Assembly (NCBI GenBank): GCA_050250895.1
Contig: JBFWNU010000003.1
Location: 256,001-320,000, forward strand
Origin: Vulcanimicrobiota bacterium
GTDB taxonomy: Bacteria; Vulcanimicrobiota; Xenobia; Xenobiales; JADMJV01
DNA: 64,000 bases
Direction: 5' to 3'
The notes beneath the pieces were generated by a model. That model made no database searches and was not told the origin of the DNA. It saw only the letters and a list, made by a program, of their open reading frames with translations. Position numbers and translations under genes: made by a program. Numbering within the stretch: the stretch's first letter is position 1; every line of letters starts with the position of its first letter. Below, in pieces: positions 9,320 through 61,814 of the stretch.

Positions 9320-10015
9320 GTGAACGTAGTCAGTCCGACGACCTTTCCGACCGCACCAGCATTTAATCCCCTCGCGCTCGCGTTCGGGAGCCGGCTGGCG
9401 GCGCCGGTGGCCCCTTCGTTCTTTGCTCCGGGAGAGTTTCTAGGCTCGCTGTCGACCCTCAGTCAGGGTTGGGCCGGTTTTGCGGGCTTTCCGCCGGCCC
9501 TGGCTCTGGCCAATCCAGCCTTCGGCCCCTTCGAGACCATCGCTGTTCCCTCGGTGGGCGACGACTTCCTCAAGTCGCTCACCAGCGGCAAGGTCAGTCT
9601 GCCCAGCGGTGGCGACGGCGCGTTCGCCGGTTTCCCGCCGGCCCTGGGTCTTCCCAATCCGGCCTTTGGTCCGTTTCCCGGCATCGATGTGCCCGCCGTG
9701 GGCGACGATTTCCTCAAAGAGCTGCTGAGCGGTAAAGCCAAGTTGCCCACGGGCTCGGCTGGCGGCGCGCTGCCGGGCTTCCCTCCAGCCCTCGGCCTGG
9801 CCCACCCGGCTTTCGGTCCCTTTGCCAACATCGGCGTCCCGGCGGTGGGGGACGACTTCCTCAAGACCGCCCTGGGTGGCAAAGGCAAGAGCAACGTGCT
9901 GATGGGTGGCTTTCCGGCTCTCGACATGGGCCCCTTCGCCAACCTGGGCATCAACTTCGACATCAGCGCCTCGACCCCTGACCAGGCCGCCAGGCGAGGC
10001 CGCAAAGGCCGCTAG
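9320..10015 (+). CDS. Hypothetical protein with three ~49-aa Pro/Phe/Gly tandem repeats
   Basis: RBS AGGAGG before GTG. The repeat GFPPALxLxxPAFGPFxxIxVPxVGDDFLK occurs three times with synonymous divergence at DNA level. Confidence 0.75.
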   Translation: MNVVSPTTFPTAPAFNPLALAFGSRLAAPVAPSFFAPGEFLGSLSTLSQGWAGFAGFPPALALANPAFGPFETIAVPSVGDDFLKSLTSGKVSLPSGGDGAFAGFPPALGLPNPAFGPFPGIDVPAVGDDFLKELLSGKAKLPTGSAGGALPGFPPALGLAHPAFGPFANIGVPAVGDDFLKTALGGKGKSNVLMGGFPALDMGPFANLGINFDISASTPDQAARRGRKGR

Positions 10016-11103
10016 TCGGTTTCGGCCGGCATCCGTCCGCCCTCGCCTCGCTCGGGCGGGACATCGGCACATTCCTCGGCTCGGCAGTCGTTGAGAAAAT
10101 CGATCATCTGGCGGAGCCGTCCATAGTTGCCGTTGGTAAATCGGAATCGAAGCGAAGGCAGGTTTTCGAGGGTCGGGTCGTAAGCCTCGCCCGAGGGAGC
10201 CGAGCAAGCTTCGATCGGGCCCTCGGCCAGATCGGCAAAGTCGGTGTTGAGCACCTCGAGTTCCTGGGGGTCGACCGAGCGGGTCAGGCGCACGAATAGC
10301 TCTTGCCCGCGGAAGCGAAGCGAATGGTAGCGACGATAGAAACGGCAGATTTCGTCGCAGGCCTCTTCGATACTATGGGTCACTTTGTAGAGGCTCAGAT
10401 CCTCGTCAGAGATCATTCCCTGGGCGAGCAGCGTCTCGCAATTGTAGTGGTGCCAGTCTTGCCAGATGGTGTTGCCTTCGGGAGCCAGGCAGACCACCGG
10501 CAAAAGCTGGGCTTTGCCGGTTTGAATCAGGGTCAGCGTTTCGAACCCCTCGTCGTGGGTTCCGAAGCCGCCGGGGCAGAGCACGACCCCGTGGCAGTCT
10601 TTGAGAAAGGCCAGCTTGCGCGTGAAGAAATACTTGAACGAGATGTCTTTGAGGTCGCCGCGGATGTGGGGGTTCGAGGCTCCTTCGCGGGGCAACAAGA
10701 TTCCCATGCCGAAGCTGTGCTCGCGCCCGGCCCCTTCGTTGCCGGCCGCCATGACGCCCGGCCCGGCCCCGGTGATGACCATGTAGCCGCGCTCGACGAT
10801 GGCCTCGGCGAAGTCTTTAGCCTGCTCATAGACAGGGCTTGAGGGGGCCGAGCGGGCCGAGCCGAAGATGCTGACTTTGCGGCGCTGATAGAACATCTCG
10901 AGCACATCAAAGGAATGCTCCATCTCTTCGAGAGCGGCCGCCGTGATTTTGAGGTCGGCCCGGCGATCGTCGCCCGACATGCGTAAGACCGAGGCGAGCA
11001 TGCGCTCGATCAAGTCGCGATGGGGAACGCTACCGTCCAGGCGGGTCATGAATTCGGAGGCGAGGCCGTCGAAGTGGGCCTTCTGTTGGTGGTTAGGACG
11101 CAT
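10012..11103 (-). CDS. LOG family (lysine-decarboxylase-like, SLOG) nucleotide phosphoribohydrolase
   Basis: FGSAR, ITGAGPGVM, FKYFFTRK and PGGFGTHDE motifs; start taken at MRPNH. Confidence 0.88.
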   Translation of the reverse strand: MRPNHQQKAHFDGLASEFMTRLDGSVPHRDLIERMLASVLRMSGDDRRADLKITAAALEEMEHSFDVLEMFYQRRKVSIFGSARSAPSSPVYEQAKDFAEAIVERGYMVITGAGPGVMAAGNEGAGREHSFGMGILLPREGASNPHIRGDLKDISFKYFFTRKLAFLKDCHGVVLCPGGFGTHDEGFETLTLIQTGKAQLLPVVCLAPEGNTIWQDWHHYNCETLLAQGMISDEDLSLYKVTHSIEEACDEICRFYRRYHSLRFRGQELFVRLTRSVDPQELEVLNTDFADLAEGPIEACSAPSGEAYDPTLENLPSLRFRFTNGNYGRLRQMIDFLNDCRAEECADVPPERGEGGRMPAETD

Positions 11104-11119
11104 CTCCGCCGTTTCGACC

Positions 11120-12244
11120 TCAGGTCGCGGCCTTCTTCTTTTCGGCCAGGCACTCGTTGATGATGGCCCAGACGGCTCCGGCGTCGGTGGTGATGTCCTC
11201 GGGACGGCCGTTGAACCGCCCGCAGAACGAGGATTTGAGCACTTCCGGCAGCACCCGCTTCTGCTCGTTGGCAAAGAGCGGATGCTTGAGATAGAGGCAG
11301 GCTTCTTCGGTGGCTCGGACCGACAGACCAGTGCCTAGCTCGGCGCTGCGGCGGATGGCATCGGCCACCGAGACCAGCTTGGTGATGACGGCCTTAGAAA
11401 CCTCGGGATGGCGGGCCTGCAGCAGTTTGACTTCTTCGGGGGGAGGCAGATAATCCATCTGGAGGGGGGCGAATCGGTCCAACTGGGCGGCGTCAATGCC
11501 GAAGGTCCCCGAGAATTCGTTGCCCCGGTTGACGGCGGCGATGAACTGGACATTGTCGGGCACGGGCAAGAAGTTGTTGTCGACCGGATTGAAGATGCGA
11601 CGGGTGGTGTCGAGGGCCGGCATGAGGGCGTTACGAGCGCTCTCCTGGCAGCGGTTGAACTCGTCGAGAAAGATCAGGGTGCGGCGCGAGCGCTGCTGAT
11701 TGGCGGCTTCTAAGGCCAGCAAGACCTCGGTCTGGAGAAAGTCCATCACCGGTTGACCGGTGTCCGAGGCCCGCACCTGGACGGTGGCCAGAAAATCGCT
11801 GGCCTCGACCACGGCTCCGCAGTTGAAGAAGACGAACTGCATTCCGAGGGCTTCGGCGATAGTGCGGGCTAGCACCGTCTTGCCGCAGCCCTGCGGTCCG
11901 TCGAGCAAGATGTTGAGGCCGCTCTCGAGCAATACCTGCAACTTGCGTGACACGATAGGATCGAGATAGACCCCTTCGAGTCGCATCGGCTGGGACTGGA
12001 CGAACTCGACCAGAATGGCCCCCCGGTCCCTGCGATCGGGCTTTTGCACCTCGACAATCTTGACCAGGCAGGGCATTCCCGGCACGATGCGGGGGTCATC
12101 GCAGAGCACCACCTTGGGGGCTCGACGGCCGTCGAGATGGGTGGCCCGAAAACGAAAGCTCGACTCGTCGACAGGATTGACCCAGAAGGTTGCCTCATGC
12201 ACATTGCCGGGCGCGAGTTCGGAGACGGTCCACTTTTTTTCCAT
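11120..12244 (-). CDS. MoxR/CbbQ-type AAA+ ATPase with small N-terminal beta domain
   Basis: Walker A GPQGCGKT, Walker B FLDEFNR, AAVN and LDRF. Confidence 0.88.
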   Translation of the reverse strand: MEKKWTVSELAPGNVHEATFWVNPVDESSFRFRATHLDGRRAPKVVLCDDPRIVPGMPCLVKIVEVQKPDRRDRGAILVEFVQSQPMRLEGVYLDPIVSRKLQVLLESGLNILLDGPQGCGKTVLARTIAEALGMQFVFFNCGAVVEASDFLATVQVRASDTGQPVMDFLQTEVLLALEAANQQRSRRTLIFLDEFNRCQESARNALMPALDTTRRIFNPVDNNFLPVPDNVQFIAAVNRGNEFSGTFGIDAAQLDRFAPLQMDYLPPPEEVKLLQARHPEVSKAVITKLVSVADAIRRSAELGTGLSVRATEEACLYLKHPLFANEQKRVLPEVLKSSFCGRFNGRPEDITTDAGAVWAIINECLAEKKKAAT

Positions 12245-12328: not shown

Positions 12329-13561
12329 TTAGTTGGAGGTGTTGAGCAGCAGGTGGGCGGCGCCACCGGCGGCGGTGATGATGTCGGGCTTGTTGTCACC
12401 ATTGAAGTCACCCACCGCGATGGAACGAACGACCTGATTGGCGATTACCGAAAAGACCTGTTGGGCGGCTACGGTTCCGTCGCCGTTGCCCAGGAAGATG
12501 GCCGCCTCGCCGGTGCCGTTGAGGTTGAGGCCAAAAGCGCTACCGGCCACGGGGTCGACCCGACCGTCGAGATTGAAGTCGCCCATGGCGGCTCCGAAGG
12601 GGTCCTGAGAGACGGGGGTGGTGGTGCCAATGGCGAACACGCCGGCTCCGTTGTTGACGAAGGTGCGCAGGACCGAGTTGTTGCCGTCGATGGATGGGAT
12701 GGCGATGTCGTCGATTCCGTCGCCATCGAGGTCACCGGCGGCGATCATCTGGGCCGTGGCGCCGGCCGGCATGGGCAGGCCGTTACTGGCGTTGGCAGCC
12801 GGAAACAGGTTGGCCGCGTTGCCGCTCGATAGCCAGAAGGCGCCGAAGGGGTCGCCGAAGTTGGCGATGGCGAGATCCGGGAAGTTGTCGCCATTGAGGT
12901 TGGCCACCACCAGCCCGCGGATGTTGCTGAGGTTGCCGGCCGAGGTGAAGTTGAAGGCGTTGAAGCCGTTGGCTCCGTCGTTGAGCAAGACGTTGACGCT
13001 GTCGTTGCCCGCATCGGCAATGGCCACATCGAGGCCGTTGACGCCGTCGAAGTCGGCCACGCCGATGCCGCGATTGCTGGTGCCGACGTTGAAGTCGTTG
13101 CGGTTGGGGAAGGCGCCGGTCCCGTCGTTGAGCAGGATGCTCAGCTGGCTGGCCGTGGCCACGGCCAGGTCCAGGTCGTTGTCTCCGTCAAAGTCGCCGA
13201 CCGCGATGGCGGTGGGACCACTGGCGGCGGTGGCAAACAGTTGCTCGGCCCCAAAGCCGCCCGCCCCGTCACCCAGAAAGACGCTGACGTCATTGGTGCC
13301 GTTGTTGGCCACCGCGAAGTCGAGGTTGGCGTCGTTGTTGAACCGGCCCACGGCCACGATTTGAGGGTTGGCCGAGCCGCCGTTACCGGCGTTGAGCACA
13401 ATGGTGGGCTGGGCGGCAAATCCTAGCGTAAGGCCGTTGGCCCCCCCTCCGCCGTCGGTGAAGAAGCCGAGATTGTTCGAGTTGGTGGTGTCACAGGCCG
13501 TGAAGGTCAAAGCTGCGGCCAGCACCAGTGCCGAAGCAAATCGGCGCCATGATATGGACAT
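12329..13561 (-). CDS. FG-GAP/VCBS repeat lipoprotein
   Basis: Lipobox LTFTAC and about seven GDFxGDxxxD repeats; RBS GGGGGA before ATG 13561. Confidence 0.9.
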   Translation of the reverse strand: MSISWRRFASALVLAAALTFTACDTTNSNNLGFFTDGGGGANGLTLGFAAQPTIVLNAGNGGSANPQIVAVGRFNNDANLDFAVANNGTNDVSVFLGDGAGGFGAEQLFATAASGPTAIAVGDFDGDNDLDLAVATASQLSILLNDGTGAFPNRNDFNVGTSNRGIGVADFDGVNGLDVAIADAGNDSVNVLLNDGANGFNAFNFTSAGNLSNIRGLVVANLNGDNFPDLAIANFGDPFGAFWLSSGNAANLFPAANASNGLPMPAGATAQMIAAGDLDGDGIDDIAIPSIDGNNSVLRTFVNNGAGVFAIGTTTPVSQDPFGAAMGDFNLDGRVDPVAGSAFGLNLNGTGEAAIFLGNGDGTVAAQQVFSVIANQVVRSIAVGDFNGDNKPDIITAAGGAAHLLLNTSN

Positions 13562-13661
13562 TAGTCCCCCTTGGAATGAGTTTGATCGCCAGGGGTTCGC
13601 CGGGCCGACCACGGTCCCATCGTGCTCTGCTCAAGAAGTGTCAGAGGGCTTCGTGGTACTT

Positions 13662-16600
13662 CTAGGGTCGAACGGCTCGACTGACCAGCCTGGAGAGAAT
13701 GCGTCCGAAAGCGATGACCGAAGCATCGAGGTCGTTCTCGAGCAGCTCGATGTAGTGGGGGAAGCAGACTTCTTGCAGCTTTCGCACGGCCACCTGAGCG
13801 CACAGTAGACCGCGCCGGCGGGTGAGGTGCCTGACCAGCGCTCGCAGGGCGCTGACCGTGCACTGGGTGGGTAAGCCGTCCGAGATCATCACCAACAGTC
13901 TGGTCTTGCGCGGGCTTGCCAGGGCCAACCCCGCCAGATAGTCGAGCGCACCGGCGTCGTTGTTGCCCCCGCTGCATTCCAGATTGTGGGCGGCGCAGCG
14001 ATTGGCGTCACCGGCATCGTAGAGGGTGGTGTCGGTGAACCCGACCACGCGCACGTCGATCCCGCCTAGTCCGCGGCCGGCCTCCGCCAGCAGGGTGGCG
14101 AACAGGCGCGCTTTGTGCAGCGACTCGCCCTGCATCGAGCCCGAGCAATCGACGGCCAGACCGAGGAAGAGGTCGGTTTCGACCTCGAGGCGTCGGGCCT
14201 CGAGCACCCGCACGTCCCCTCGCAAGACGACCGCCGGTAGTTGGGCGCGGTCCAGGCGACGGCCGCTGGTGCGCCGCTTGTGGGGTCGATAGCGCAGACC
14301 CAAACGCTCGAAAACGGCCCGCAAACGGCGGGCATAGCGCGCCACCGCGCGGACGTGCTCGCGATGGGCTACCGGGTCGAAGGCTACCGGCACCACTGCT
14401 GTCAAGGGGGGAAAGTCGACTTGAGGCCCGTCGTTGAGGACCAGAGCCCGAGCTCCTCCTTTGCGAAGGCGCTCGACTTCGCGACGCAATTCGTCGGGGG
14501 TCAGGCCCTCGGTGCGCACGATGACCTCGGCGTCGTCCCACTCCGGGGTGTCGGGACCGAGGCTTTCGAGCAGCACGGTCTGGGTGCCAAAGAGCCGTTG
14601 CAACTCCAGCGTGATTTCGTAGAGCCTTTCCATGTCTGCATGCCGAAAGTCAGGGCCGAAGAGGGCCAGGGCCTGGCCGACCAGCGGGTCGTGATGACGA
14701 TTGCCCAAACCCATGCGCAGGGCTCGCACGAAGCGCCCAAAGGGAAGCGAACTCTTCTCGAGGGCGCGAAAGACATCGCGACCGCGGACTCGCAGGCAGC
14801 CCCGGCGGCGGGCCAGTTGCAGGCGGGTGGCGGTCAAGACCTCAAAAAGCCCGCGGCCCAGGCTGACCACCAGGCTCTCGAGTTCGACCTCCCGGTCGCG
14901 ATGGCCGAAGGCATAAGCCGTCAGTCGCTTGAGCTTCTGGTCGTTGTCGGCGTGGTTGGCGCGCAGGTTTCGCTCGAGATGCTCATCCGAGACCAGATTG
15001 AGCAGCGAGTGCAAGCCGGCCTTTTCGGCTCGCGTCCAAACAGCTTTGGAGGCCGCGTCGGCGTGGTAGATGTGGTGGCCGAATTCATGCAGCATCAGCC
15101 CTTTGACGATGTCTTCGGCGTGGCGTTCGCCGGTGAAGATGGGCATCACGTTGACGAAGATGCGAGCCTCATGCAGGTAGGTGTAGCCCAGCTTCTCGCC
15201 GGTGAGCATTTCCAGGGCAAAGAGCTTGCCGGTCAGTTCGCGTCCGCGGCTGAGTCCCCAGTGAAAAGCCTCGGCCACCCGGCGCACGCGGGCGGCCCGC
15301 TCCGGGCTGCGACGCAGCTGCTGGACCAGGGGGCCGCAGGTGGCCGGCTTGCGGCTGTCTTTTAACACTTCCAGGGCCAGCGGCTCGAAGTGTTTGGAGG
15401 GCATGGTGACCAGCCATTTGAGCAGCTCGGTTTCCGCCAAACCGCTAGCCAGCAGCCCCACCACCGCGTCTCTCAGGTGCTCGGTGTCGGCGGCGGCCAG
15501 CGCCAGGCGGTGGCGAGTGCCGAAGATCCGTTCCCAGAACAGCAGCGGCAAGCCCGTGGGATCGCCTGCCTCGAAAAGGGCGGTGGCCACCTTGAGACGC
15601 AGCCCGGCCAGACGTTGGGGCCCCGCTAGCAGAAAGTCGCGAAGCCGCCGACGAGCAGTGGGGGAGGGGTGGCTCAGGAGCTGCTCCACGGCCGGATGGT
15701 AGGCGTGAGGGTGGGGGCTGGTGGCCAGTTTTTCAGGCAAATCGGCCAGGCCGAGCCGCTCGAGACGTTCCCAGTGGCCGGCCCCAAGCCAGGTGGTCTG
15801 GGTGGGAGCCAGGGCTGCCTCGAGCAGCACCTCCTCCCATTCTTCGCCCGATTCGGCCAGCGATAGAGCGGCCACGAACCTTACCTCGGCGGGGTAGTGT
15901 CCCGCCCGCAGTCGCTCGCGCACCTGCTCGAGGCTGACAGGATCTGGCCAGAGCCCGACCGACTCGGCCAAAACTCCCAGTTGGGGCAGGTCTTCCTCCA
16001 GCAGTTGCAGCAGTCGCTGGCAACCGCTGGGGCGAAAATCGAGCAGGCGCAGAGCCGCTTCGGCCACGATCTCGGCTTGCGGGCCCCGAGCCCACTCGAC
16101 CAACTGCTCGAGGTCCTGGCAGCGCCCGATGAGACGCTTTTGATCGTCGGTCAACTTGACCCGGCGTCCGCGCGCGGCCTGGCCGAGACCGCGGCTGTCG
16201 AACCAGCGAGCGAGCATGCTGCGGGCCTGGGGGTCGAGATCAGGCAGTAGAGCGGTGACTTCAGCCCGGACCAGACCGGTCGGCCCGCCATGATAGTCCC
16301 AACAGCGATCCAGGCACACGGCCGCGCCGACTCCGCCCGGGCCGGCCAGCGCTGCTACGGCCAGCTCCTCCAGGCTAGAAGTGGCGCAGCTGGCGAAAAG
16401 CGAACGTTCGCGCCATCGCCACATGCCCAGCAAGCGACCGGTGGCCCCCCAGCCTTCTTCGCACAAGCGCGGGTTGCCCTGCGCGATGAAGGCCAACCAA
16501 CTGGTCAGGTTGGCCGGACTCTGGTCGAGGCTCGACCAGAGAAAACCCAGATGCCTTTCCCAGCGCGACAGCCAGGCATGGCCATGGACGGGAAGACCTT

Positions 16601-18524
16601 CATTCATTAGCCAGAGACGACAGGCCCGCTCGTCGAGCGAGGTGAGAAAATCGCTCCCGGTCGAGCTATAGTTCTGAAACTCCGCGTCCACTTCGTGGTA
16701 AGGATCGTGGCACCCCAGCAAGGCCAGGCACACCTCCAGGCAGGGGGTCTCGGGACAGGGGCGTTGGCTCAGGGCGGCGGTCAGGCCTCGGCAGGGGCTG
16801 CGCAGGCAGGGCTCCACCGCGTGGGGCAGGGCGGCGGCAGCGCAGGTCGCGATTTGGCGGGCCTCGGCCCTGGTCAGGCTGCGCACATGGGGGGAAGCTT
16901 TCGTCGCCGGCAGGCTGATTTGAGGCCGACGGGCTCGAGCCCAATCCGCGATCCGCCGGTCAGCGTGCCGTTCTAGCTGGCTGGCCAGACAGACTTCACA
17001 GGCGAAAGGAAAGGCCGAGCAGTGATCGACGCGCCCGAGCAGGGTGAGCAGTCTCGCTTGGGTCAGACGAGTAGCCAGTTCATAGAATTCCTGGGCCCCC
17101 AGTCGTTCGGCCAGCATTTGCAGCAGAATTGGGGTGAGCGGGTTGTCACGGTGGTCTAGTACTCGCTCGAGCACCCCGGCGGGTGGGGCTGCTTCGCTCA
17201 ACTGGCGGGCCAGCAAGCGCAGGCGATTGGGCGAAAAGCCGGGGTTGGGCGGGGCGGCCAGTTCGAGGGCCAGATCCACCGCCTGAAGTTTCTCGGCCGG
17301 CGTCAGGCCGTCTAACGCGGCGCGACCCGCCTCATATTCATCCCCTTCGACCAGATCCGTCAGCGCCGCCGCCGCCATCCAACCGGACGCTCTTCCCAGG
17401 CGCTCAAAGAAGGTTCGGCTGGTCTTGGGGTGGCGACCCGGCGCGGCCAGATGGGCCAGTCCTGCCGGGTGGTGTCGCACGGCCAGCATCAAGGCGTCGA
17501 AGTCGACCCGGCGGATCAGGACTCGCATGGGATCTTCGGCCAATCGCAGCAGGGCCCCAAGCATCAGGAGATCAAGGCGGCCCTGGAAGTCGACCAGGGG
17601 AGGGGCTTGCAGGATGAGCGCGATCTCCTCGTCGTCAAGGCGGTCGGAGCGGTGGCCAAGGCGATACAGGCGAGCCAGACCTCTGCGCCTGGCCCCCTCG
17701 GGAAACCAGGCGAACCTGAGGCTGCGGGGATGAAAGCCCACGATCAGGCCAACGACCCAGTCCGGCCAGTTGCCCTGGCTCAGACCGACTCGGCACAGCG
17801 ACGCGATGGGCCTGGCCCGGTGATCGTGGCTGGACAACCATTGGCCGACCTCGCTCCAGAAAGCACCTTCGACGTCCCAGAAAAGACCAAAGAGAGCGTC
17901 CAGGGGGTCGGGCTCCATGGGCGGAGGGCGGGTGCCCCGGGCCCAATCCTCGCTGCGAGTGGGCACCGCCACCCCGAGCAGCTTAGCGGCCGCCCCTCGG
18001 CGGAGCAGATGGCGCGCTCGGGCGGGCGAGAGCGTCCCTAGCTCGGTCCATTCGAGGATGGGACCGACCAGGCTGGGCGCGAGGTCGGGTAGCTGCTCTC
18101 TCGCCGCTGCCGCCAGCCAGGGGTCTTCCAGCAGAAAGAGGTTCAGCCATTGGGCCGTCGACGGGCTATGATCGAGGGCTAGACGTCTCACCTCGACCCG
18201 CGGGTGAAATACTAAGTGAGCCCAACGGGCCGGGTCGTGGTGGACCGACTCGGTCATGGCCTGGGCGGCCGCTTTCACCACGTCAGGGGCCGGGTCGCCC
18301 AGAAGTTCTAACAACCAGCTCAGGGCCCGCGGACCTTCGGCGCCAGCCAGAGCGCGGGCCGCGGCCGCACGCACTCTGGCCTTGGAGTGGGCCAGGGCCC
18401 GGGGAAGACGTCCCAGGAAAGGGACTCTCTCTTTGAGCTTGAGGGCGGCCAGAAGCTCGAGCTGCTCCACCAGCAAGTCGGCGGGGGCGCCGGGATCGTC
18501 GAGGGCTTCCCACAAGGCCAGCAT
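13662..18524 (-). CDS. Giant HEAT-repeat / HExxH metallopeptidase-like / vWA protein (likely MoxR partner)
   Basis: N-terminal HEAT repeats (VRAAAARALA, LGDPAPDVVKAAA), HEFGH, and a C-terminal vWA MIDAS DCSGSM...ISDG. Start placed at MLALW because the longer ORF overlaps a divergent promoter. Confidence 0.82.
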   Translation of the reverse strand: MLALWEALDDPGAPADLLVEQLELLAALKLKERVPFLGRLPRALAHSKARVRAAAARALAGAEGPRALSWLLELLGDPAPDVVKAAAQAMTESVHHDPARWAHLVFHPRVEVRRLALDHSPSTAQWLNLFLLEDPWLAAAAREQLPDLAPSLVGPILEWTELGTLSPARARHLLRRGAAAKLLGVAVPTRSEDWARGTRPPPMEPDPLDALFGLFWDVEGAFWSEVGQWLSSHDHRARPIASLCRVGLSQGNWPDWVVGLIVGFHPRSLRFAWFPEGARRRGLARLYRLGHRSDRLDDEEIALILQAPPLVDFQGRLDLLMLGALLRLAEDPMRVLIRRVDFDALMLAVRHHPAGLAHLAAPGRHPKTSRTFFERLGRASGWMAAAALTDLVEGDEYEAGRAALDGLTPAEKLQAVDLALELAAPPNPGFSPNRLRLLARQLSEAAPPAGVLERVLDHRDNPLTPILLQMLAERLGAQEFYELATRLTQARLLTLLGRVDHCSAFPFACEVCLASQLERHADRRIADWARARRPQISLPATKASPHVRSLTRAEARQIATCAAAALPHAVEPCLRSPCRGLTAALSQRPCPETPCLEVCLALLGCHDPYHEVDAEFQNYSSTGSDFLTSLDERACRLWLMNEGLPVHGHAWLSRWERHLGFLWSSLDQSPANLTSWLAFIAQGNPRLCEEGWGATGRLLGMWRWRERSLFASCATSSLEELAVAALAGPGGVGAAVCLDRCWDYHGGPTGLVRAEVTALLPDLDPQARSMLARWFDSRGLGQAARGRRVKLTDDQKRLIGRCQDLEQLVEWARGPQAEIVAEAALRLLDFRPSGCQRLLQLLEEDLPQLGVLAESVGLWPDPVSLEQVRERLRAGHYPAEVRFVAALSLAESGEEWEEVLLEAALAPTQTTWLGAGHWERLERLGLADLPEKLATSPHPHAYHPAVEQLLSHPSPTARRRLRDFLLAGPQRLAGLRLKVATALFEAGDPTGLPLLFWERIFGTRHRLALAAADTEHLRDAVVGLLASGLAETELLKWLVTMPSKHFEPLALEVLKDSRKPATCGPLVQQLRRSPERAARVRRVAEAFHWGLSRGRELTGKLFALEMLTGEKLGYTYLHEARIFVNVMPIFTGERHAEDIVKGLMLHEFGHHIYHADAASKAVWTRAEKAGLHSLLNLVSDEHLERNLRANHADNDQKLKRLTAYAFGHRDREVELESLVVSLGRGLFEVLTATRLQLARRRGCLRVRGRDVFRALEKSSLPFGRFVRALRMGLGNRHHDPLVGQALALFGPDFRHADMERLYEITLELQRLFGTQTVLLESLGPDTPEWDDAEVIVRTEGLTPDELRREVERLRKGGARALVLNDGPQVDFPPLTAVVPVAFDPVAHREHVRAVARYARRLRAVFERLGLRYRPHKRRTSGRRLDRAQLPAVVLRGDVRVLEARRLEVETDLFLGLAVDCSGSMQGESLHKARLFATLLAEAGRGLGGIDVRVVGFTDTTLYDAGDANRCAAHNLECSGGNNDAGALDYLAGLALASPRKTRLLVMISDGLPTQCTVSALRALVRHLTRRRGLLCAQVAVRKLQEVCFPHYIELLENDLDASVIAFGRILSRLVSRAVRP

Positions 18525-18559
18525 AGCTGTGCGTTCTGGCGAGGCTGAGCATGTCCCTG

Positions 18560-18588
18560 TTGACAATCTCTGGCCAAACAAGTAATAT
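18560..18588 (+). promoter_or_regulatory. Near-consensus sigma70 promoter
   Basis: TTGACA(18560-65)-17 bp-TAATAT(18583-88) in a GC-rich genome; predicted start about 18595. Confidence 0.75.
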
Positions 18589-18594
18589 TGGATG

Positions 18595-19257
18595 GCCGAA
18601 GGAGGTGAGATTACGTCCAATCCAGCTGAACATTTGACCCGTGTCCGCTCGAGCGCGACGCGCTTGTCGACATCAACCAGACGCGGTGAGTTGCCGGCGC
18701 GGGCGACTCACCTTCGAGTTGCGCCCCCGGCCAGTCACCAATAGGCAAGACTCGAAACGGTTCGCGTGAGGACGGCAGCCTCTCAGGTGGGAGCGGCCGC
18801 ACGCGAGGCCCGAAGCCCCATGGACCACCGCGGAGCTTCTTCTGGTCCCTGGCCGTTTTTCCGTCCCGTCGATCGATGTCGAGTATCGCGAGAAGCTGTG
18901 TCCACAATTCGCTTTTGTCCCCGAGGGCGGCTTTGGTCCGACGGTGACGCGGCGAGGCGTGGGACTGTTCTCGGGCCGGGGAGCGGTGGGTTGAAGAACT
19001 AGTGCGGCTGGTGGTTTGGAGTGGGGGTACTCCGATGACCACCAGCCGCTAGATCTTCGCGTCGAGGCCAGGCCTGTAAAGGGGCAAGGCCTTCTTGCTG
19101 TTTTACCAGCTAGCGAAGCTTTGATATTTCCAGTCTAGCTGGTCTGGGGGAGTAGCAACACATCCATGCTGCTCTTCCCGGAGCATCCCAGCAGGGGGGG
19201 ATTGTTCGGATAGGGGGGGGCTATCCGGACGAGGCTTCCTCGAATCGGACCACCGGC
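18595..19257 (+). ncRNA. Candidate large structured non-coding RNA (~660 nt), family unrecognised
   Basis: No credible ORF; more than 12 nested helices, G-U wobbles favouring the + strand, and 5'/3' end pairing (see findings). Confidence 0.6.
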
Positions 19258-19296
19258 ATACAGTCGTAGAATCAAACACCTGAAGGGGACAGCAAC

Positions 19297-19536
19297 GTGA
19301 TTTCGATCGCCATTTTTCCGGTCGCCGGAGGCCGAACAGCTTCAGTGGAGGGAATTCTCGACGAAACCACCTTCATCACCCTCAAGGATTGGCTCAGTGT
19401 GGTCCTCAGTGGGCCCTCGGGCCGAGTCACTCTAGAGATTTCGGGCCTCTACTCGCCTTGCACCGCCCTCAGACGGCGGCTGCAGCAGCTCGCCACGCGC
19501 TACGACTTCGACCTGGTCGACCAGCCCGTCGAATAA
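19297..19536 (+). CDS. Small hypothetical protein
   Basis: RBS GAAGGGGA before GTG; followed by a terminator hairpin. Confidence 0.55.
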   Translation: MISIAIFPVAGGRTASVEGILDETTFITLKDWLSVVLSGPSGRVTLEISGLYSPCTALRRRLQQLATRYDFDLVDQPVE

Positions 19537-19544
19537 CCAGAAAG

Positions 19545-19575
19545 ACCCCTCGGACGAGCCGAGGGGTTGTGTTTT
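19545..19575. terminator. Terminator hairpin between convergent genes
   Basis: ACCCCTCGG-ACGAG-CCGAGGGGT followed by TGTGTTTT. Confidence 0.65.
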
Positions 19576-19601
19576 CCGGGGGGAGGGAGGGTCTGGGGTA
19601 T

Positions 19602-19985
19602 CTATGTGATCTGTAGCCTCGACTGCCGGGGCGTTTGCAGGCGAGGCCGGGTGGGCTCGAGGCCCATATCGTGACCGGATGCATTCAGTAGTTGGCCTAT
19701 CCAGCCCCGTTCTCCAAAGAACTGAATGCCGGCTTCGCGCCGACCGGTCATAGGCTCCTCAATTTGCCACACTACGGTACCCCGGCAGGAAGGGAGGCCG
19801 GAATAGGCGCCTGATAGTGGAGCGAGGTCAACAGTGGTGTCGAGATCGAGCGGAGGCTGGCAGAGCAGTCGGAGTCCGTGGGCGCTAACGTCGGTAACGA
19901 TACCTACCGAGCCTTGTTCACCGGTGCGGTAGGCCACCAGAGCGTTGCAACGCAGTCTTGGAGATTGGCGGTTATCAAGAGTCAT
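19602..19985 (-). CDS. PilZ domain protein (c-di-GMP receptor)
   Basis: RQSPR (RxxxR) and DVSAHG (DxSxxG) motifs, GTVVW, GIQF. Confidence 0.85.
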   Translation of the reverse strand: MTLDNRQSPRLRCNALVAYRTGEQGSVGIVTDVSAHGLRLLCQPPLDLDTTVDLAPLSGAYSGLPSCRGTVVWQIEEPMTGRREAGIQFFGERGWIGQLLNASGHDMGLEPTRPRLQTPRQSRLQIT

Positions 19986-19987
19986 GG

Positions 19988-20188
19988 CTATTTCCTTGGC
20001 TGCTCGGGGGTGAGTTCTTCATACCCGAGACGGGTCAGATCCTCGTGGAAGGGAGCAATATCGCGAGCCCGATAGAGCGGTCCCTTGCGTCCGGTGCTGG
20101 TGCAGTTCCAGCTGCCGGTTCGGTAGTCCCATTCGCAGATGACGGCGTGCTTGCGTTCCGGATCTAGGAAGTGGCGAGTGGAGGGCAT
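19988..20188 (-). CDS. Small hypothetical protein
   Basis: RBS GAAAGGA before ATG (MPSTRH); tightly coupled to the PilZ gene. Confidence 0.6.
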   Translation of the reverse strand: MPSTRHFLDPERKHAVICEWDYRTGSWNCTSTGRKGPLYRARDIAPFHEDLTRLGYEELTPEQPRK

Positions 20189-20287
20189 GCGGTTCCTTTC
20201 AATCAACCTGAGCTTCGTAGCACAGATCCTGCAGCAACAGGCTCCAAGGCAGGTCGTAGGTGGTCTGGGTGGTGAGGAGATCGGATT

Positions 20288-20518
20288 TTACCATCGGATC
20301 GCCTCCGCTTCAGAAGAGTCCACGGCCGTCCCGGCCCCGATGAAGACCAGGCTATCGGAGTTATAGAAACGACGCTGACTCCTTTCCCAGGCGCGATCCA
20401 TTCGTAACAGACTGCGCTGCAGACGCAGAGCGCGACGGTGAGCACGGTCGGGATCCAGGCCGGGTTCGTCACAAAGACAGGCAGCCACCAATCGTTCGAG
20501 CGGAACTTTCTTTACCAT
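20288..20518 (-). CDS. Small hypothetical protein
   Basis: Strong RBS GGAGGTG before ATG. Confidence 0.6.
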   Translation of the reverse strand: MVKKVPLERLVAACLCDEPGLDPDRAHRRALRLQRSLLRMDRAWERSQRRFYNSDSLVFIGAGTAVDSSEAEAIRW

Positions 20519-20542
20519 ATTTTCACCTCCGGATGAGGGCTC

Positions 20543-20665
20543 GATGGAAAGGCTTGCATAATCCGCTCGTTCGTGCTATGCTGCGGATGCATTATGCGGT
20601 AGCCCAGCTACCCGTCAGCCCTGCGCCAACTTCCCGGACGGAGCAGGGCTACGTGCTTTTCCACC
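20543..20665 (-). promoter_or_regulatory. Candidate structured 5' leader (closing stem plus three hairpins)
   Basis: Minus strand GGTGGAAA/TTTCCATC encloses AGCCCTGC/GCAGGGCT, GGTAGC/GCTACC and GCATAAT/ATTATGC. Confidence 0.4.
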
Positions 20666-20813
20666 GTTATTTAGTTTACCCTGATGTCGAGCCTTCAAAC
20701 ACCCATTTAAGGCGATTTTCTGGCGAGGGATCGCCTGGCTGCTCTCGAAGTTCACGGGCCGTGCCGGCCGTTACTCTCAGTCTATCCCCTGGCGAGGTCC
20801 TCTGTCTGTCGCG

Positions 20814-23597
20814 GTGACGGTGGTCCGAGTCCAGGCCACCTGGAAGGAGGACCGTTTTTGGTTGTGGCTCCGCGACGCTCCCTCCGGCTATTCTCTGGAA
20901 CAGCTGGTCCCCGGTCTTCCGAATAGTGACGCCCAACCGCTCGAGCTTCGTCTGCCCAACGGGCCGGTGACGGTGAGCGGTTGGCCGTTCGAGGTGGGAC
21001 CAATGGTGGCTCCCCTGGCTCGCCTGCCGGTCGACTGCCCCGCCGGTAGTGACCTGAGAGTGTTCAGCCTGGCCGCGCGCTGGTTGTTGGCCTTGCTGGT
21101 GCGTCAACGCTGGCTGCCGTCGGTGCAAGACGGTCAGACCTTCTTTCGCCCCTCCTTTGACGACATGAAAGACCAGGCTCGCCTGCAACAACTCGAGCAA
21201 CTGTTGCCCCCGTCGGCCCGAGCGGCCCAACCCGAACTCTCGCCGCGACAGGTGCTCGAGCGCTTTGCCGAGGTGGGCGTCCACCAGTTGCTGAGCGATT
21301 GGCTGGGCGAAGGCCGGGTCCGGCTGCCGGCCAACCGGCTCAAGTCGCTGCCGGAGGACTACGCTAGCTGGTTGACGGATCTGGCCCAGGGCCACATCCA
21401 GGAGCTGGCACCAACCCTCGAGCGAGAGCTGGCCCGTTGGCAGATGCCTCTGGCTCCTGAACTGGCCACCACTCGTCTGGCCTTTGCCCTGGTACCGCCA
21501 GACCAGGGCGGCTGGCGCTTGGAAATCAGGTTGGAGAGCCGGCTCGGACCCGGTCTATCAGCCGGAGTGGAGGATATCTGGGACAGGCCTCACGAGTTGC
21601 CTCAAGAGTTACGCCTCGACCCACGAGGACCCATGGTGGCTCTGCTGGTGGATCTGGGTCGGGCCATTCGCGTCTTTCCCGAGCTGGGACCGGCTATGGC
21701 CGGTCCTCGTCCCGAGGCGCTCGAGCTTGACCACCAGGAGGTCTACCAGTTCTTGCGCTCGACCGCCTGGCTGTTAGAAGAGATGGGCTTCGGGGTGGGG
21801 ATGCCCTCGAGTCTGCGCCAATTTCAGCCCCTGTCGATGCACTTGAGCGTGAAGGAATCCGCCCAGGGCGGCAAAGGTCTCGACATTCTGGTTGATTACG
21901 ACTGGCAGGTTCGCCTGGGGGAACAGCCGCTCAACGAGGCCGAGCTGCGTCAGCTGGCCGGAGCCACTTTGCCCCTGGTGTGCCTGCGCGGGCAATGGTA
22001 CCTGCTCGAACCCGATAGTCTGCGCCGGGCCCTGGAGCTATGGAATCGGGGCGGGGCCAGAGGGGCGACTCTGGGTGAGGCCCTGGCCGCCTCGCGCGTA
22101 GGGTTGGCGGTCGACTTTACCTTTGAAGGCGGTCTGGCCGGGCTGTCGGGACGTTTCGCGCTGGAACCCCCGCCCTCGACCCTGCGCGCCCAACTGCGGC
22201 CCTATCAAGAACGAGGTTACTCCTGGCTGGTGTTCCTACGCGAGCGCGGGCTGGGGGCCTGCCTGGCCGACGATATGGGCCTGGGTAAGACAGTGCAGTT
22301 GATCGCGTTGCTCTTGCGCGAGCGTGAGCAACATCCCGGATTGGGACCCACCCTGCTGGTATGTCCCACTTCGATCGTGGGCAACTGGTGTAAGGAACTC
22401 GAGCGCTTTGGTCCAGAGCTGCAGGTGATGGTCCACCACGGGCCGGGGCGGCCGAAGAGTCTCGAGCCAGCCGGAGTGGACCTGGTGGTGACGACCTATG
22501 GTTTGGTTCACCGTGATCGCCAGGTGCTGGCCCGGGTCAAGTGGCGGGGCCTGGTGCTTGACGAAGCCCAGAATGTCAAGAATCCGGCCTCTCTGCAAGC
22601 GAAAGCAGTGCGCGCCATGACGGCTGGGTTTCGAGTCGCCATGACAGGCACGCCGGTGGAGAACCGGTTGGCCGACCTGTGGGCCCTGATGGACTTTCTT
22701 CAGCCTCGCTTGCTGGGCACCCGGCGGGGCTTTCAGAAACAGTTCGCCGTGCCGATCGAACGCTACGGCGATGAAGCCTGCCGCGAGGGGCTCAAGAATC
22801 TGGTTGGACCGTTCTTGCTGCGCCGCAAGAAGACCGATCCCGATATCGCGCCCGACCTGCCCGACAAGGTGGAGTACAACCTCTACTGCCGGCTCACCGG
22901 CGAACAGTCGACCCTTTACGAGCAAGCCGCCGAGCAGTTGCTCGAAGAGGTCAGCCTGGCCGAAGGCATCACCCGCAAGGGTCTGGTGCTCAAGCTTTTG
23001 ACCCGGCTCAAGCAACTCTGCAACCATCCCGGCCTCTATCTGGGCGGACTCGACCCCATGGCAGGCCGCTCAGGCAAACTCGAGCGGCTCGAGGAGATGC
23101 TCGAGGAGGTGGTGGCCTGCGGCGACGCGGCCCTGGTGTTCACCCAGTTTGCCGGTTTCGCGCAACGGCTGGCCGGGCATCTGAGTGGCCGTCTCGACCG
23201 CGAAGTGCTCTGTCTGCACGGCGGCCTCTCGCGAGTTGCCCGCGACCGGGTGGTGCATCGCTTTAGCCTGAGCTACGGACCGCCGGTGATGGTCATCTCG
23301 GTGCGAGCCGGTGGCGTGGGCCTCAACCTCACCCGGGCAAGTCGCGTGTTTCACTTTGACCGCTGGTGGAACCCGGCCGTCGAAGCTCAGGCCACCGATC
23401 GCGCGTTTCGTATCGGCCAGACCCGCAAGGTCGAGGTCTATAAGTTCATCTGTAGCGGCACTCTCGAAGAGCGCATCGACCTGATGCTGGCCCACAAAGC
23501 CCGACTGGCCGAGACGGTGGTGGGCAGCGGTGAGGACTGGCTGACCAGCCTGGACGACGAAAGTCTGGGAGCACTGCTCCGGTTGGAGCGGCGATGA
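20814..23597 (+). CDS. SNF2-family helicase (YwqA/DUF3670 type)
   Basis: LRPYQ, LADDMGLGKT, LDEAQ, TGTPVEN, SGK and QATDRAFRIGQ. Confidence 0.93.
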   Translation: MTVVRVQATWKEDRFWLWLRDAPSGYSLEQLVPGLPNSDAQPLELRLPNGPVTVSGWPFEVGPMVAPLARLPVDCPAGSDLRVFSLAARWLLALLVRQRWLPSVQDGQTFFRPSFDDMKDQARLQQLEQLLPPSARAAQPELSPRQVLERFAEVGVHQLLSDWLGEGRVRLPANRLKSLPEDYASWLTDLAQGHIQELAPTLERELARWQMPLAPELATTRLAFALVPPDQGGWRLEIRLESRLGPGLSAGVEDIWDRPHELPQELRLDPRGPMVALLVDLGRAIRVFPELGPAMAGPRPEALELDHQEVYQFLRSTAWLLEEMGFGVGMPSSLRQFQPLSMHLSVKESAQGGKGLDILVDYDWQVRLGEQPLNEAELRQLAGATLPLVCLRGQWYLLEPDSLRRALELWNRGGARGATLGEALAASRVGLAVDFTFEGGLAGLSGRFALEPPPSTLRAQLRPYQERGYSWLVFLRERGLGACLADDMGLGKTVQLIALLLREREQHPGLGPTLLVCPTSIVGNWCKELERFGPELQVMVHHGPGRPKSLEPAGVDLVVTTYGLVHRDRQVLARVKWRGLVLDEAQNVKNPASLQAKAVRAMTAGFRVAMTGTPVENRLADLWALMDFLQPRLLGTRRGFQKQFAVPIERYGDEACREGLKNLVGPFLLRRKKTDPDIAPDLPDKVEYNLYCRLTGEQSTLYEQAAEQLLEEVSLAEGITRKGLVLKLLTRLKQLCNHPGLYLGGLDPMAGRSGKLERLEEMLEEVVACGDAALVFTQFAGFAQRLAGHLSGRLDREVLCLHGGLSRVARDRVVHRFSLSYGPPVMVISVRAGGVGLNLTRASRVFHFDRWWNPAVEAQATDRAFRIGQTRKVEVYKFICSGTLEERIDLMLAHKARLAETVVGSGEDWLTSLDDESLGALLRLERR

Positions 23598-44581: not shown

Positions 44582-49174
<4,593 letters not shown>

Positions 49175-60915: not shown

Positions 60916-61814
60916 CAGGCTGTCCGTCCGGTGTCGCGCATGACGCGGGTGATGCGGCGCTCGATCTTGGCGATGGCCGCCTCTTCCTGGCGGGCCGACA
61001 TGTTGACCTTGAAGTCGCCGAAGTGTCCCCAATGGCGAGCGATCAGGCCCATCGCATAGTCGACCGCCCGGGGCTCGTCGTGAATCTGGATAATCTTTTG
61101 CTCACCCACGGCCTGGCTCCACTGCTTGTCGACCTTGTCGCCTTTGCGACCGGCTCGGCGCAAGAACCAGGTGTCCCAGGTGCGGGCCACCTGTTGCCAT
61201 GTCTTGATCGAGTCCTGGTTCTGAGACTCGCGAGCACCCAGGATGTCGGTCAACTCGCTGGCCTTGATCTTGGCATGCATGGTGGCGTCACCAAAGACGA
61301 TGAGGAAAGGCTTCTCGCCGGTCTTCTTGATGCTCACATGGTTGGCCAGCCACCAGGCGAAGAGGCCGTAGCTCTCGGGCTCGTCGCCGCCGCCGCCTTC
61401 GCCGTAGAGCGACTTGAGTTCGGTTTCTAGGGCGAAGCCTTTGGCAAAGCGGGTTACCTGCAAAGGCCAGCGGTCGCAGTGAGCGTCACCGATGGCGGCA
61501 AAGCAGATCTCGAGGTCGGGTCGATACTGAGAGAGGGTGTTGTAGACCAGCGGTAGGCGGTCAAAAATCTCGGCCGGCCACCCGGCCATCGAGCCGGTGA
61601 CATCGACGGCGATGACCAGCGGAGTCTTGGTCTTCGGAGCCAGATGCTTCTTGGGGTCGATGAGGCTCTCGTCAGGTCCCCGGTGGTTGTAAGTACGCGG
61701 GCCGCGCGAAGCAGCTTCGCGGGCGTCTTTGGCGCGCTCGGCCTTGCGAGCGGAGTCGAATCGATAGGCGCCCGGTCGGGCCCAGTCTTCCATAGAATCT
61801 CCCCAAGAATACAT
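60915..61814 (-). CDS. vWA domain protein
   Basis: MIDAS DVTGSM, IGDAHCD..PLQV, EGGGG...ESY and FGD; RBS GGAGG. Confidence 0.85.
   Translation of the reverse strand: MYSWGDSMEDWARPGAYRFDSARKAERAKDAREAASRGPRTYNHRGPDESLIDPKKHLAPKTKTPLVIAVDVTGSMAGWPAEIFDRLPLVYNTLSQYRPDLEICFAAIGDAHCDRWPLQVTRFAKGFALETELKSLYGEGGGGDEPESYGLFAWWLANHVSIKKTGEKPFLIVFGDATMHAKIKASELTDILGARESQNQDSIKTWQQVARTWDTWFLRRAGRKGDKVDKQWSQAVGEQKIIQIHDEPRAVDYAMGLIARHWGHFGDFKVNMSARQEEAAIAKIERRITRVMRDTGRTA

Follow-up and report, generated by a model that had tools for sequence, protein, structure and literature searches.

Background

The locus described here raises the question whether a long gap next to a giant gene harbours a structured RNA and, if so, how this RNA relates to its neighbours. 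The gap belongs to a contiguous stretch of 64,000 nucleotides (in the following: the window) from the genome of a Vulcanimicrobiota bacterium (GenBank assembly GCA_050250895.1, contig JBFWNU010000003.1, positions 256,001 to 320,000). It measures 772 bp (18525-19296) and lies between the ATG of a gene for a 1620-aa protein with HEAT repeats, an HExxH motif and a von Willebrand factor type A (vWA) domain, here designated HEAT-vWA protein, and a 79-aa open reading frame (ORF; 19297-19536); a gene for a MoxR-type AAA+ ATPase is part of the same cluster. An original prediction, made from the sequence alone, had placed in this gap a novel RNA of ~660 nt on the + strand, closed at its ends and divergent from the HEAT-vWA and MoxR genes. 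Its central point, a structured and novel element beside these genes, stands; its size, several of its helices and the orientation presented as typical do not. MoxR-vWA systems are widespread and poorly understood, and a covarying RNA tied almost one-to-one to the giant HEAT-vWA gene provides a concrete handle on them.

The element is a real structured RNA class, undescribed as far as the searches go, and adds a well-supported kissing-loop fold to the orphan bacterial RNAs. With a probability of roughly 0.5, it represents a new leader-type class of HEAT-vWA/MoxR systems that serves as a cis-regulatory sensing domain and was displaced by inversion in the window.

Detection and distribution of the conserved element

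The stretch 18560-19300 is single-copy in its own genome, and its comparison with 40 relatives by BLAST yielded chance matches of 21-31 nt only. Orthologues of the HEAT-vWA protein were found in two of 25 relatives, i.e. G013 (full length at 42% identity) and G001 (fragments, from the same genus), and upstream of both genes a block of ~100 nt matches window positions 18750-18850, in the opposite orientation relative to the gene. An exact pattern derived from this block occurred in three of 40 genomes of the window's order, the reversed control pattern in none. Across 44 genomes of the window's class, model R1, built from the three copies (window, G001, G013), recovered just these copies and one chance match inside a coding region. 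A protein-pattern scan of species-representative genomes revealed, among the matches listed, one distant HEAT-vWA homologue (28% identical) in a metagenome-assembled genome (MAG) of the Polyangiaceae (L012), and an R1 match of 24.6 bits was located about 220 nt upstream of its gene. Pattern scanning of metagenomes returned three loci, of which L013 repeats the sequence of the G013 region over the compared stretch, and L014 and L015 share the pattern only.

The sense-strand model R2, built from four copies and comprising 103 positions with 23 pairs, was run on three samples of 151 genomes each, drawn from the order of the MAG, the phylum of the MAG and the phylum of the window. Matches were obtained in 18 genomes of the MAG's order at E<=0.05, including 12 at E<=1e-5, in two of its phylum at E<=0.001, both already contained in the order sample, and in the window's phylum for the three known copies plus two weak matches (E 0.002 and 0.008). 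Overall, element and giant HEAT-vWA gene were found together in 18 genomes, three from the window's family and 15 among the 151 from the MAG's order; next to this gene, R2 matches reach E 1e-14 to 1e-6 per genome. The window copy is the best-scoring one (103.8 bits), though it is also a training sequence. Its core follows the predicted transcription start at a distance of about 150 nt and has the same orientation as the promoter, and the conserved part as a whole spans ~103-135 nt, from 18748 to ~18880, past which no conservation was recognised among the relatives.

No known RNA family accounts for the element. At gathering score, Rfam 15 has no match in the whole 64-kb window, and the region 18200-20900 gave three matches only, at E 3.8-6.4 and 16-19 bits versus gathering scores of 36-90. 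Likewise, no match at E<=1 was obtained in L005 and L007, and the sole match in 11 loci from the Polyangiales order was to a plant miRNA model (E 0.81), away from the element. None of the Rfam families, including OLE, ROOL, GOLLD, HEARO, raiA, Y_RNA, 6S, tmRNA, RNase P and the riboswitches, came near its gathering score. A coding function of the conserved stretch was ruled out, as the copies differ by 1- and 2-nt indels. In agreement with the prediction that the gap contains no credible ORF, it holds short ones only, the longest of which (143 aa, 18611-19042, - strand) is R/S/P-rich and without Pfam match, and GC periodicity is weak compared to the flanking genes.

Several weak model matches were set aside, namely those in L036, L039, L037, L038, G076, G106, G138, G255 and G268 as well as one in G040, which sits in a coding region. 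Two weak full-length R1 matches in the window itself, at 61139-61252 (- strand, 24.0 bits) and 48492-48596 (+ strand, 18.1 bits), are heavily gapped and probably due to chance.

Fold, covariation and RNA strand

The core is composed of two adjacent hairpins, A and B, with complementary loops (Table 1). Hairpin B pairs GAAGCCCC (18812) with GGAGCTTC (18832) and carries GGACCACC in its loop. On the 20-sequence alignment to R2, 92.4% of the cells in the three nested helices are paired, compared to 76.9% in column shuffles and 37-54% with partners slid by 1-3 columns. Changes on both sides with pairing kept were observed for 16 of the 23 nested pairs, and none of 500 shuffles reached any of the observed pairing measures. 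RNAalifold independently predicted hairpin A and the base of hairpin B from the same alignment.

The strongest single piece of evidence is the loop-loop helix, which is absent from the model. It is paired in 95.6% of its cells, the non-pairs originating from one misaligned and two marginal rows, and covaries at two of five positions (pair 42-91: GC 12, AU 3, GU 2, other 1; pair 43-90: UA 14, CG 2, other 2). Most loci including the window combine GGUGG in loop A with CCACC in loop B, which is replaced by GAUGG/CCAUC in L007, L026 and L034, by GGCGG/CCGCC in L012 and L029, and by GGUGG/CCAUC, involving a G-U pair, in L005 and L027. All 28 pairs together comprise 455 Watson-Crick, 34 G-U, 11 A-C and 26 other cells; the excess of G-U over A-C cells identifies the modelled strand, i.e. 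the + strand of the window, as the RNA strand. The claim of a structured RNA on the + strand downstream of the predicted promoter is supported.

Long arms of 17-41 nt flank the core in seven of the 18 loci, with a complementarity of at least 3 standard deviations (SD) above shuffles. They are positioned 20-136 nt before and about 100-230 nt after the core, enclosing domains of roughly 320-440 nt where measured, and show compensatory differences between L012 and L029 and between L033 and L035. Past hairpin B, the blocks CUUUGG and CCGNNCNNUCGAUGG (YCGAUGG) are conserved by eye in a MAFFT alignment of the 18 loci. The block following the core (window 18861-18882) often forms a palindrome around TCGA/CGATCG (TCGATCGA in the window and L028, CCATCGATGG in L022, CCGTCGACGG in L029) and may function in RNA dimerisation or at the level of DNA.

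Association with the HEAT-vWA gene and genomic layout

The HEAT-vWA protein is encoded in 17 of the 151 genomes from the MAG's order. Element and protein occur together in 15 genomes, the protein alone in two (G068 and G183), the element alone in three, which represent the weakest matches (E 0.026-0.05), and neither in 131. The element is genetically tied to the HEAT-vWA/MoxR genes, as had been proposed.

Layouts were derived from the coordinates of model and protein matches, supplemented by tblastn on element-oriented loci. In 13 of the 15 genomes of the order sample, and also in G001 and G013, the element precedes the HEAT-vWA gene on the same strand, resulting in 15 same-strand adjacent copies among all 18. 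In those loci that were examined, about 170-500 nt separate the end of such a copy from the beginning of the protein match. Two copies are adjacent and divergent, those of the window and of G057 (about 340 nt from the gene), and one (G142) is remote, sharing a contig with the HEAT-vWA gene but separated from it by 26 kb. The divergent arrangement, which had been taken for the norm, is therefore the exception; it reflects an inversion in the window and, independently, in G057. The remote copy scores 44 bits (L045, G142:C3, 10268-10376, - strand); Pfam recognises nothing in the ORFs that follow it, and these resemble neither HEAT-vWA nor MoxR.

In three of the four other loci checked, namely G013, G057 and the MAG (L012), the HEAT-vWA gene is directly followed by a MoxR gene; in the fourth, G156, none was found within the 5.4 kb checked. 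The separate propeller gene of the window is absent in G013. The MoxR proteins of G013, G057 and the MAG share 67-75% identity with that of the window, a range also observed between the window and genomes of the Polyangiales order, versus just 36-44% for the adjacent HEAT-vWA protein (window compared to L005, L047 and L012). Together with the patchy spread (three of 151 genomes in the window's phylum), these identities suggest that the cassette may have moved horizontally.

Promoter-like site and RNA-library contigs

The proposed sigma-70-like promoter TTGACA-17-TAATAT was found as described (Table 1). It points away from the HEAT-vWA gene, about 36 nt from the start codon, and is one of three promoter-like sites in 18300-20900, where 0.4 would be expected from shuffles. 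A comparable site, TTGACT-17-TACAAT, is present in G013 in the same sense, about 310 nt upstream of the element copy and about 640 nt upstream of the HEAT-vWA start codon. Scans of L007, L012, L022, L025 and L031 detected neither promoter-like sites nor, on the strand of the element, terminator-like sites.

Sequencing runs holding a small share of the stretch numbered 13, four of which are metatranscriptomes from one study. Contigs were placed at 90% likeness and originate from a strain about 92% identical to the window. Three libraries cover the element: X1 with one 396-nt contig over 18610-18991, X3 with contigs over 18637-18746, 18742-18932 and 18995-19059, and X5 with one over 18637-18817. 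The stretches 18000-18440, 18518-18591, 19110-19553 and 19850-20071 are contig-free in all runs, and the DNA run X2 contributed no contig at all; these gaps were not counted as silence.

The differences between this strain and the window agree with the comparative fold. None of the 24 listed substitutions falls within 18740-18819, hence none in hairpin A. In hairpin B, the sole mismatch, C-A, is resolved to C-G by 18834 A>G, and 18828 C>T converts a pair of the kissing helix to G-U and thus retains it. Two further substitutions, 18706 A>G and 18882 A>G, add one U-G pair each on the + strand, in two helices specific to the lineage of the window, the former as second U-G in the 11-bp hairpin 18685-18712. 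By contrast, 18822 G>T and 18846 T>C break two of the six pairs of the helix GGACCA/TGGTCC of the original prediction; the comparative data favour GAAGCCCC/GGAGCTTC instead.

One X3 contig (depth 3.1) joins 19059 back to 18637 (going back 423), with AGA in between. The minimum-energy fold of 18596-19110 contains a 5-bp helix 18680-18684/19059-19063. Possible explanations for this joint are an artefact of assembly or reverse transcription, a tandem layout in the strain concerned, and an RNA that is circular or permuted.

Folding energy

The inverted repeats named in the prediction exist (I5, I9, I10, I11, I12, I20), and most are part of the minimum-energy fold. For 18590-19260, the folding z-score amounts to -4.4 on the + and -4.55 on the - strand (20 shuffles); the stretch folds better than its shuffles in either direction, and the strands are not told apart. 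With 200 shuffles, z is -1.2 (+) and -0.2 (-) for 18596-18865, -3.4 (+) and -4.4 (-) for 18866-19110, the source of the folding signal, and -1.8 (+) and -0.8 (-) for 19111-19296. Random windows of 245 nt from the same genome (n=98) have a mean z of -0.53 (SD 1.3) and three of them reach -3.42; thermodynamic stability is therefore notable, not exceptional. It was rejected as evidence for the core (z -0.3) and alone would not carry the claim of a structured RNA.

Regulatory leader, partner RNA or other functions

A cis-regulatory leader is favoured because position and architecture of the element in most genomes are those of a 5' leader: the structured domain precedes the gene in the same orientation in 15 of 18 genomes, the exceptions being the window, G057 and G142. 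The RNA consists of the two adjacent hairpins, locked by the 5-bp loop-loop helix and followed by the short blocks CUUUGG and YCGAUGG; in several genomes a long-range helix encloses all of it as a domain of roughly 320-440 nt. In the normal setting, it would be transcribed ahead of the giant HEAT-HExxH-vWA gene from the same strand, and the fold of its sensing domain, controlled by a ligand or by one of the system's proteins, would decide the expression level of the operon. In the window, leader and sigma-70-like promoter are read as a unit inverted in place, because flipping 18530-19295 would restore the layout of G013. The unit would then produce a free-standing + strand transcript of roughly 410-510 nt, from about 18596 to 19060-19105. 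In this divergent layout, the element cannot control the HEAT-vWA gene in cis.

Several observations weigh against a leader function or against the evidence on which it is built. A terminator-like site that could belong to an expression platform was not found between element and gene in L012, L022 and L025, and G013 displays an atypical T7 run about 75 nt before the gene, without canonical hairpin. In three of 18 genomes (window, G057, G142), the element is intact although its position precludes cis control of the gene; for the window and G057, the HEAT-vWA gene has an open frame and a MoxR gene after it. Such intact, uncoupled copies fit a trans-acting RNA at least as well. The folding energy of the conserved core 18740-18862 is inconspicuous (z -0.3 on the + and -0.5 on the - strand, 200 shuffles), and within 260 nt the window flanks form no significant enclosing helix (z -0.2). 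Furthermore, the nested helices were counted on a model-fitted alignment, a bias towards the model, and the sequences are related to one another, so that cell counts overstate independent events. The RNA-library contigs, finally, come from a single study and show neither strand nor ends nor level.

A trans-acting partner RNA, i.e. a stable non-coding RNA that cooperates with the HEAT-vWA protein and the MoxR ATPase in the role of a scaffold, sensor or guide-like component, is a possible alternative, tentatively retained because the three uncoupled copies stay intact. Such an RNA would usually be made from the 5' end of the operon and be equally functional if transcribed separately, as in the window. 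It would explain that the element persists in two independent inverted copies and in one 26 kb away while the genes next to the inverted copies are maintained, that the window copy has a strong promoter-like site of its own and is represented in RNA libraries, that its core is free of substitutions relative to the 92%-identical strain even though cis control is impossible there, and that presence and absence of element and gene nearly coincide. The leader position of 15 of 18 copies, which precede the start codon by about 170-500 nt on the strand of the gene, speaks against it, as do the lack of a recognised RNA-binding domain in the proteins and of a terminator or promoter between RNA and gene in the scanned loci. 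Somewhat more speculatively, and as a minority reading in line with the ribonucleoprotein idea of the original prediction, the element may be the RNA subunit of a new ribonucleoprotein machine, with the kissing-loop RNA bound by the HEAT-repeat part and loaded or remodelled by MoxR. If so, the inverted copies of the window and G057 and the remote copy of G142 would be fully functional RNA genes, and the machine would parallel Ro60-Y RNA inside a MoxR-vWA system proposed for biological conflict. The RNA either senses the signal that switches the system on, as a candidate new riboswitch or autoregulatory leader, or belongs to the machine, and the two independent inversions represent natural experiments on cis versus trans action.

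It is rather improbable that leader and promoter form an invertible switch, flipping between ON (into the HEAT-vWA gene) and OFF (as assembled) in the manner of phase variation. In-place inversions that affect two unrelated lineages and leave the element equally far from the gene (about 200-340 nt), the window promoter directed away from the nearby start codon, and a 29-nt inverted repeat flanking the element in G057 (L031; 1408-1436 and 1787-1815, 83% complementary) would be in line with such a switch. The best inverted repeat flanking the window element, however, does not exceed chance (score 17 versus a shuffled mean of 19.1), and the arms in G057 are more likely an RNA helix than a recombination site because similar arms with compensatory changes also flank non-inverted copies.

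A single end-closed RNA of ~660 nt (18596-19257), comparable to OLE, ROOL or GOLLD as originally envisaged, is very unlikely. The low folding energy of the whole stretch, a minimum-energy fold that pairs the 5' end with 19230-19255, and the enclosed domains of about 320-440 nt in related loci are compatible with it. Against it stand the loss of recognisable conservation past about 18880, the equally good folding of the - strand, the share of random genomic windows that fold as well as the best sub-region (3/98), RNA-library contigs ending at 19059 and the lack of a match to any large-RNA family of Rfam. The predicted RNA shrinks to a conserved part of ~103-135 nt within contig coverage of 18610-19059, and the end-closing pairings and last 150-200 nt (19110-19257) find no support from relatives.

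It is hardly credible, finally, that there is no RNA and that the similarity reflects a conserved DNA site, such as an operator or palindrome, or arose by chance in a rapidly evolving spacer. The often palindromic block around TCGA and the unremarkable folding energy of the core would permit this reading; it is contradicted by compensatory changes in three helices plus the loop-loop pairing, the prevalence of G-U over A-C cells, the presence of the stretch in RNA libraries, and highly significant model matches that always lie beside the same gene.

Comparison with known systems

Bacterial 5' leader RNAs of the riboswitch or protein-binding type form the natural comparison class. Like these, the element has a covarying fold with a loop-loop contact and, in 15 of 18 genomes, precedes one particular gene by a few hundred nt on the same strand, and RNA-library contigs cover its leader region. 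Unlike them, it comes without a detected ligand or expression platform, without Rfam match and with three uncoupled intact copies; unlike most aptamers, its enclosed domain is larger, about 320-440 nt in several loci.

Ro60 (Rsr) consists of HEAT-type repeats and a vWA domain, and its gene adjoins a structured Y RNA or YrlA non-coding RNA in either orientation; the stem formed by the 5' and 3' ends of Y RNA carries the conserved Ro-binding helix. In the present case, too, a HEAT-repeat and vWA protein is encoded beside a structured RNA of variable orientation. For the HEAT-vWA protein, neither a TROVE match in Pfam nor a match to Ro60 among solved structures was obtained; it is about three times longer than Ro60 and, unlike the latter, possesses an HExxH motif. 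Unlike Y RNA, the element has no Y_RNA- or YrlA-type Rfam match, and its conserved part comprises two internal hairpins and no terminal stem.

OLE RNA with its Oap proteins, ROOL, GOLLD and HEARO are large structured RNAs. The element resembles OLE in being a sizeable structured RNA beside genes with which it may work. In contrast to all four, its core measures just ~103-135 nt, taxonomy and neighbouring genes differ, and their Rfam models gave no match at E<=10 in 18200-20900.

The gene cluster itself recalls the MoxR-vWA-centred 'ternary' conflict systems, which, according to the main text of their description, combine a MoxR AAA+ ATPase with a vWA protein of great length whose N-terminal region is alpha-helical (Kaur et al. 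2020, PMC7159879). Shared with the systems as portrayed there are a beta-propeller (FG-GAP) gene, an SLOG/LOG-like gene and MoxR plus a long vWA protein, and also a patchy distribution in favour of large-genome bacteria. In the propeller subtype of the same main text, the propeller follows the vWA domain within one protein (PMC7159879); in the window, vWA is C-terminal and the FG-GAP propeller is a separate gene, which places the cluster outside this subtype as outlined there. The word 'non-coding' does not occur in this main text and no RNA component is mentioned in it. A full-text literature search likewise retrieved no description of an RNA component for MoxR-vWA systems, and in two 2026 preprints on intergenic elements the terms MoxR, vWA, von Willebrand, Myxococc-, Polyangi- and kissing have no occurrences.

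Gene neighbourhood of the element

Table 1 Features of the window in and around the HEAT-vWA gene cluster
Feature	Position	Strand	Remarks
Conserved core, ~103 nt	18748-18850	+	Match to model R2, 103.8 bits
Hairpin A	18762-18806	+	Outer stem 18762-18768/18800-18806, inner stem 18776-18780/18795-18799
Hairpin A apex	18782-18784/18791-18793	+	CUC/GAG, loop AGGUGG 18785-18790; comparative alignment, RNAalifold
Hairpin B	18812-18839	+	Stem 18812-18819/18832-18839; CCACC in loop, 18825-18829
Loop-loop (kissing) helix	18786-18829	+	GGUGG 18786-18790 with CCACC 18825-18829, 5 bp
3' conserved blocks	18840-18880	+	CUUUGG-like UUCUGG after hairpin B; CCGNNCNNUCGAUCGA at 18861-18877; by eye
Sigma-70-like promoter TTGACA-17-TAATAT	18560-18588	+	10/12 consensus matches; predicted start near 18596
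11-bp hairpin upstream of core	18685-18712	+	Lineage-specific to window; U-G at 18692/18705
Perfect 12-bp hairpin	19004-19049	+	No counterpart recognised in other loci; main source of low folding energy
Weak terminator-like hairpin with U-rich tail	19071-19104	+	19081-19093 plus CTTGCTGTTT; putative 3' end
RNA-library coverage	18610-19059	+ (presumed)	Contigs show no strand; three libraries, one study
Giant HEAT/HExxH/vWA protein gene	13662-18524	-	1620 aa from ATG at 18524; conserved neighbour of the RNA element
FG-GAP propeller gene	12329-13612		Between MoxR gene and HEAT-vWA gene
MoxR-type AAA+ ATPase gene	11120-12244	-	AAA_5 at 7e-15, AAA_3; same cluster

In the 1620-aa protein, Pfam at E<=0.01 recognises HEAT_2 (4e-8), HEAT and CobT_C, nothing else; the latter, representing the vWA domain, is weak (21.2 bits versus a cut-off of 21) and C-terminal (residues ~1521-1567). 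The search among solved structures returned CobT (PDB; E 3e-4) and an artificial alpha-repeat protein (E 0.73) only. A HEFGHH and a DxSGS motif are readable in the translation. MoxR ATPase and vWA-protein genes occur in one cluster, as in a MoxR-vWA system, the vWA domain being recognised weakly, and an SLOG/LOG-like gene (10012-11274) follows in this HEAT-vWA/FG-GAP/MoxR cluster. Its proteins have no meaningful match in PADLOC or among solved structures, and no RNA-binding domain was recognised in them with Pfam, solved structures or PADLOC.

On the other side of the gap, the 79-aa ORF lacks relatives in G001 and G013 and is not matched by Pfam. It opens a stretch (19300-20530) of lower GC content (0.57-0.60 versus about 0.65-0.69 around it) without counterpart beside the HEAT-vWA gene in G001 or G013. 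The stretch contains small ORFs only, i.e. the 79-aa ORF, a PilZ-domain ORF, and ORFs of 72 and 76 aa, the last of which is preceded by a strong ribosome-binding site (GGAGGTGA). Within it, a second and deeper island of RNA-library contigs (19575-19813; depths 82.9 in X1, 7.1 in X3 and 13.7 in X5) covers the last third of the PilZ-domain ORF (19602-19985, - strand) and the spacer beside a strong bidirectional terminator (19544-19568). The folding z-score of the island is about 0 on both strands, and it could represent a stable 3' fragment or a small RNA.

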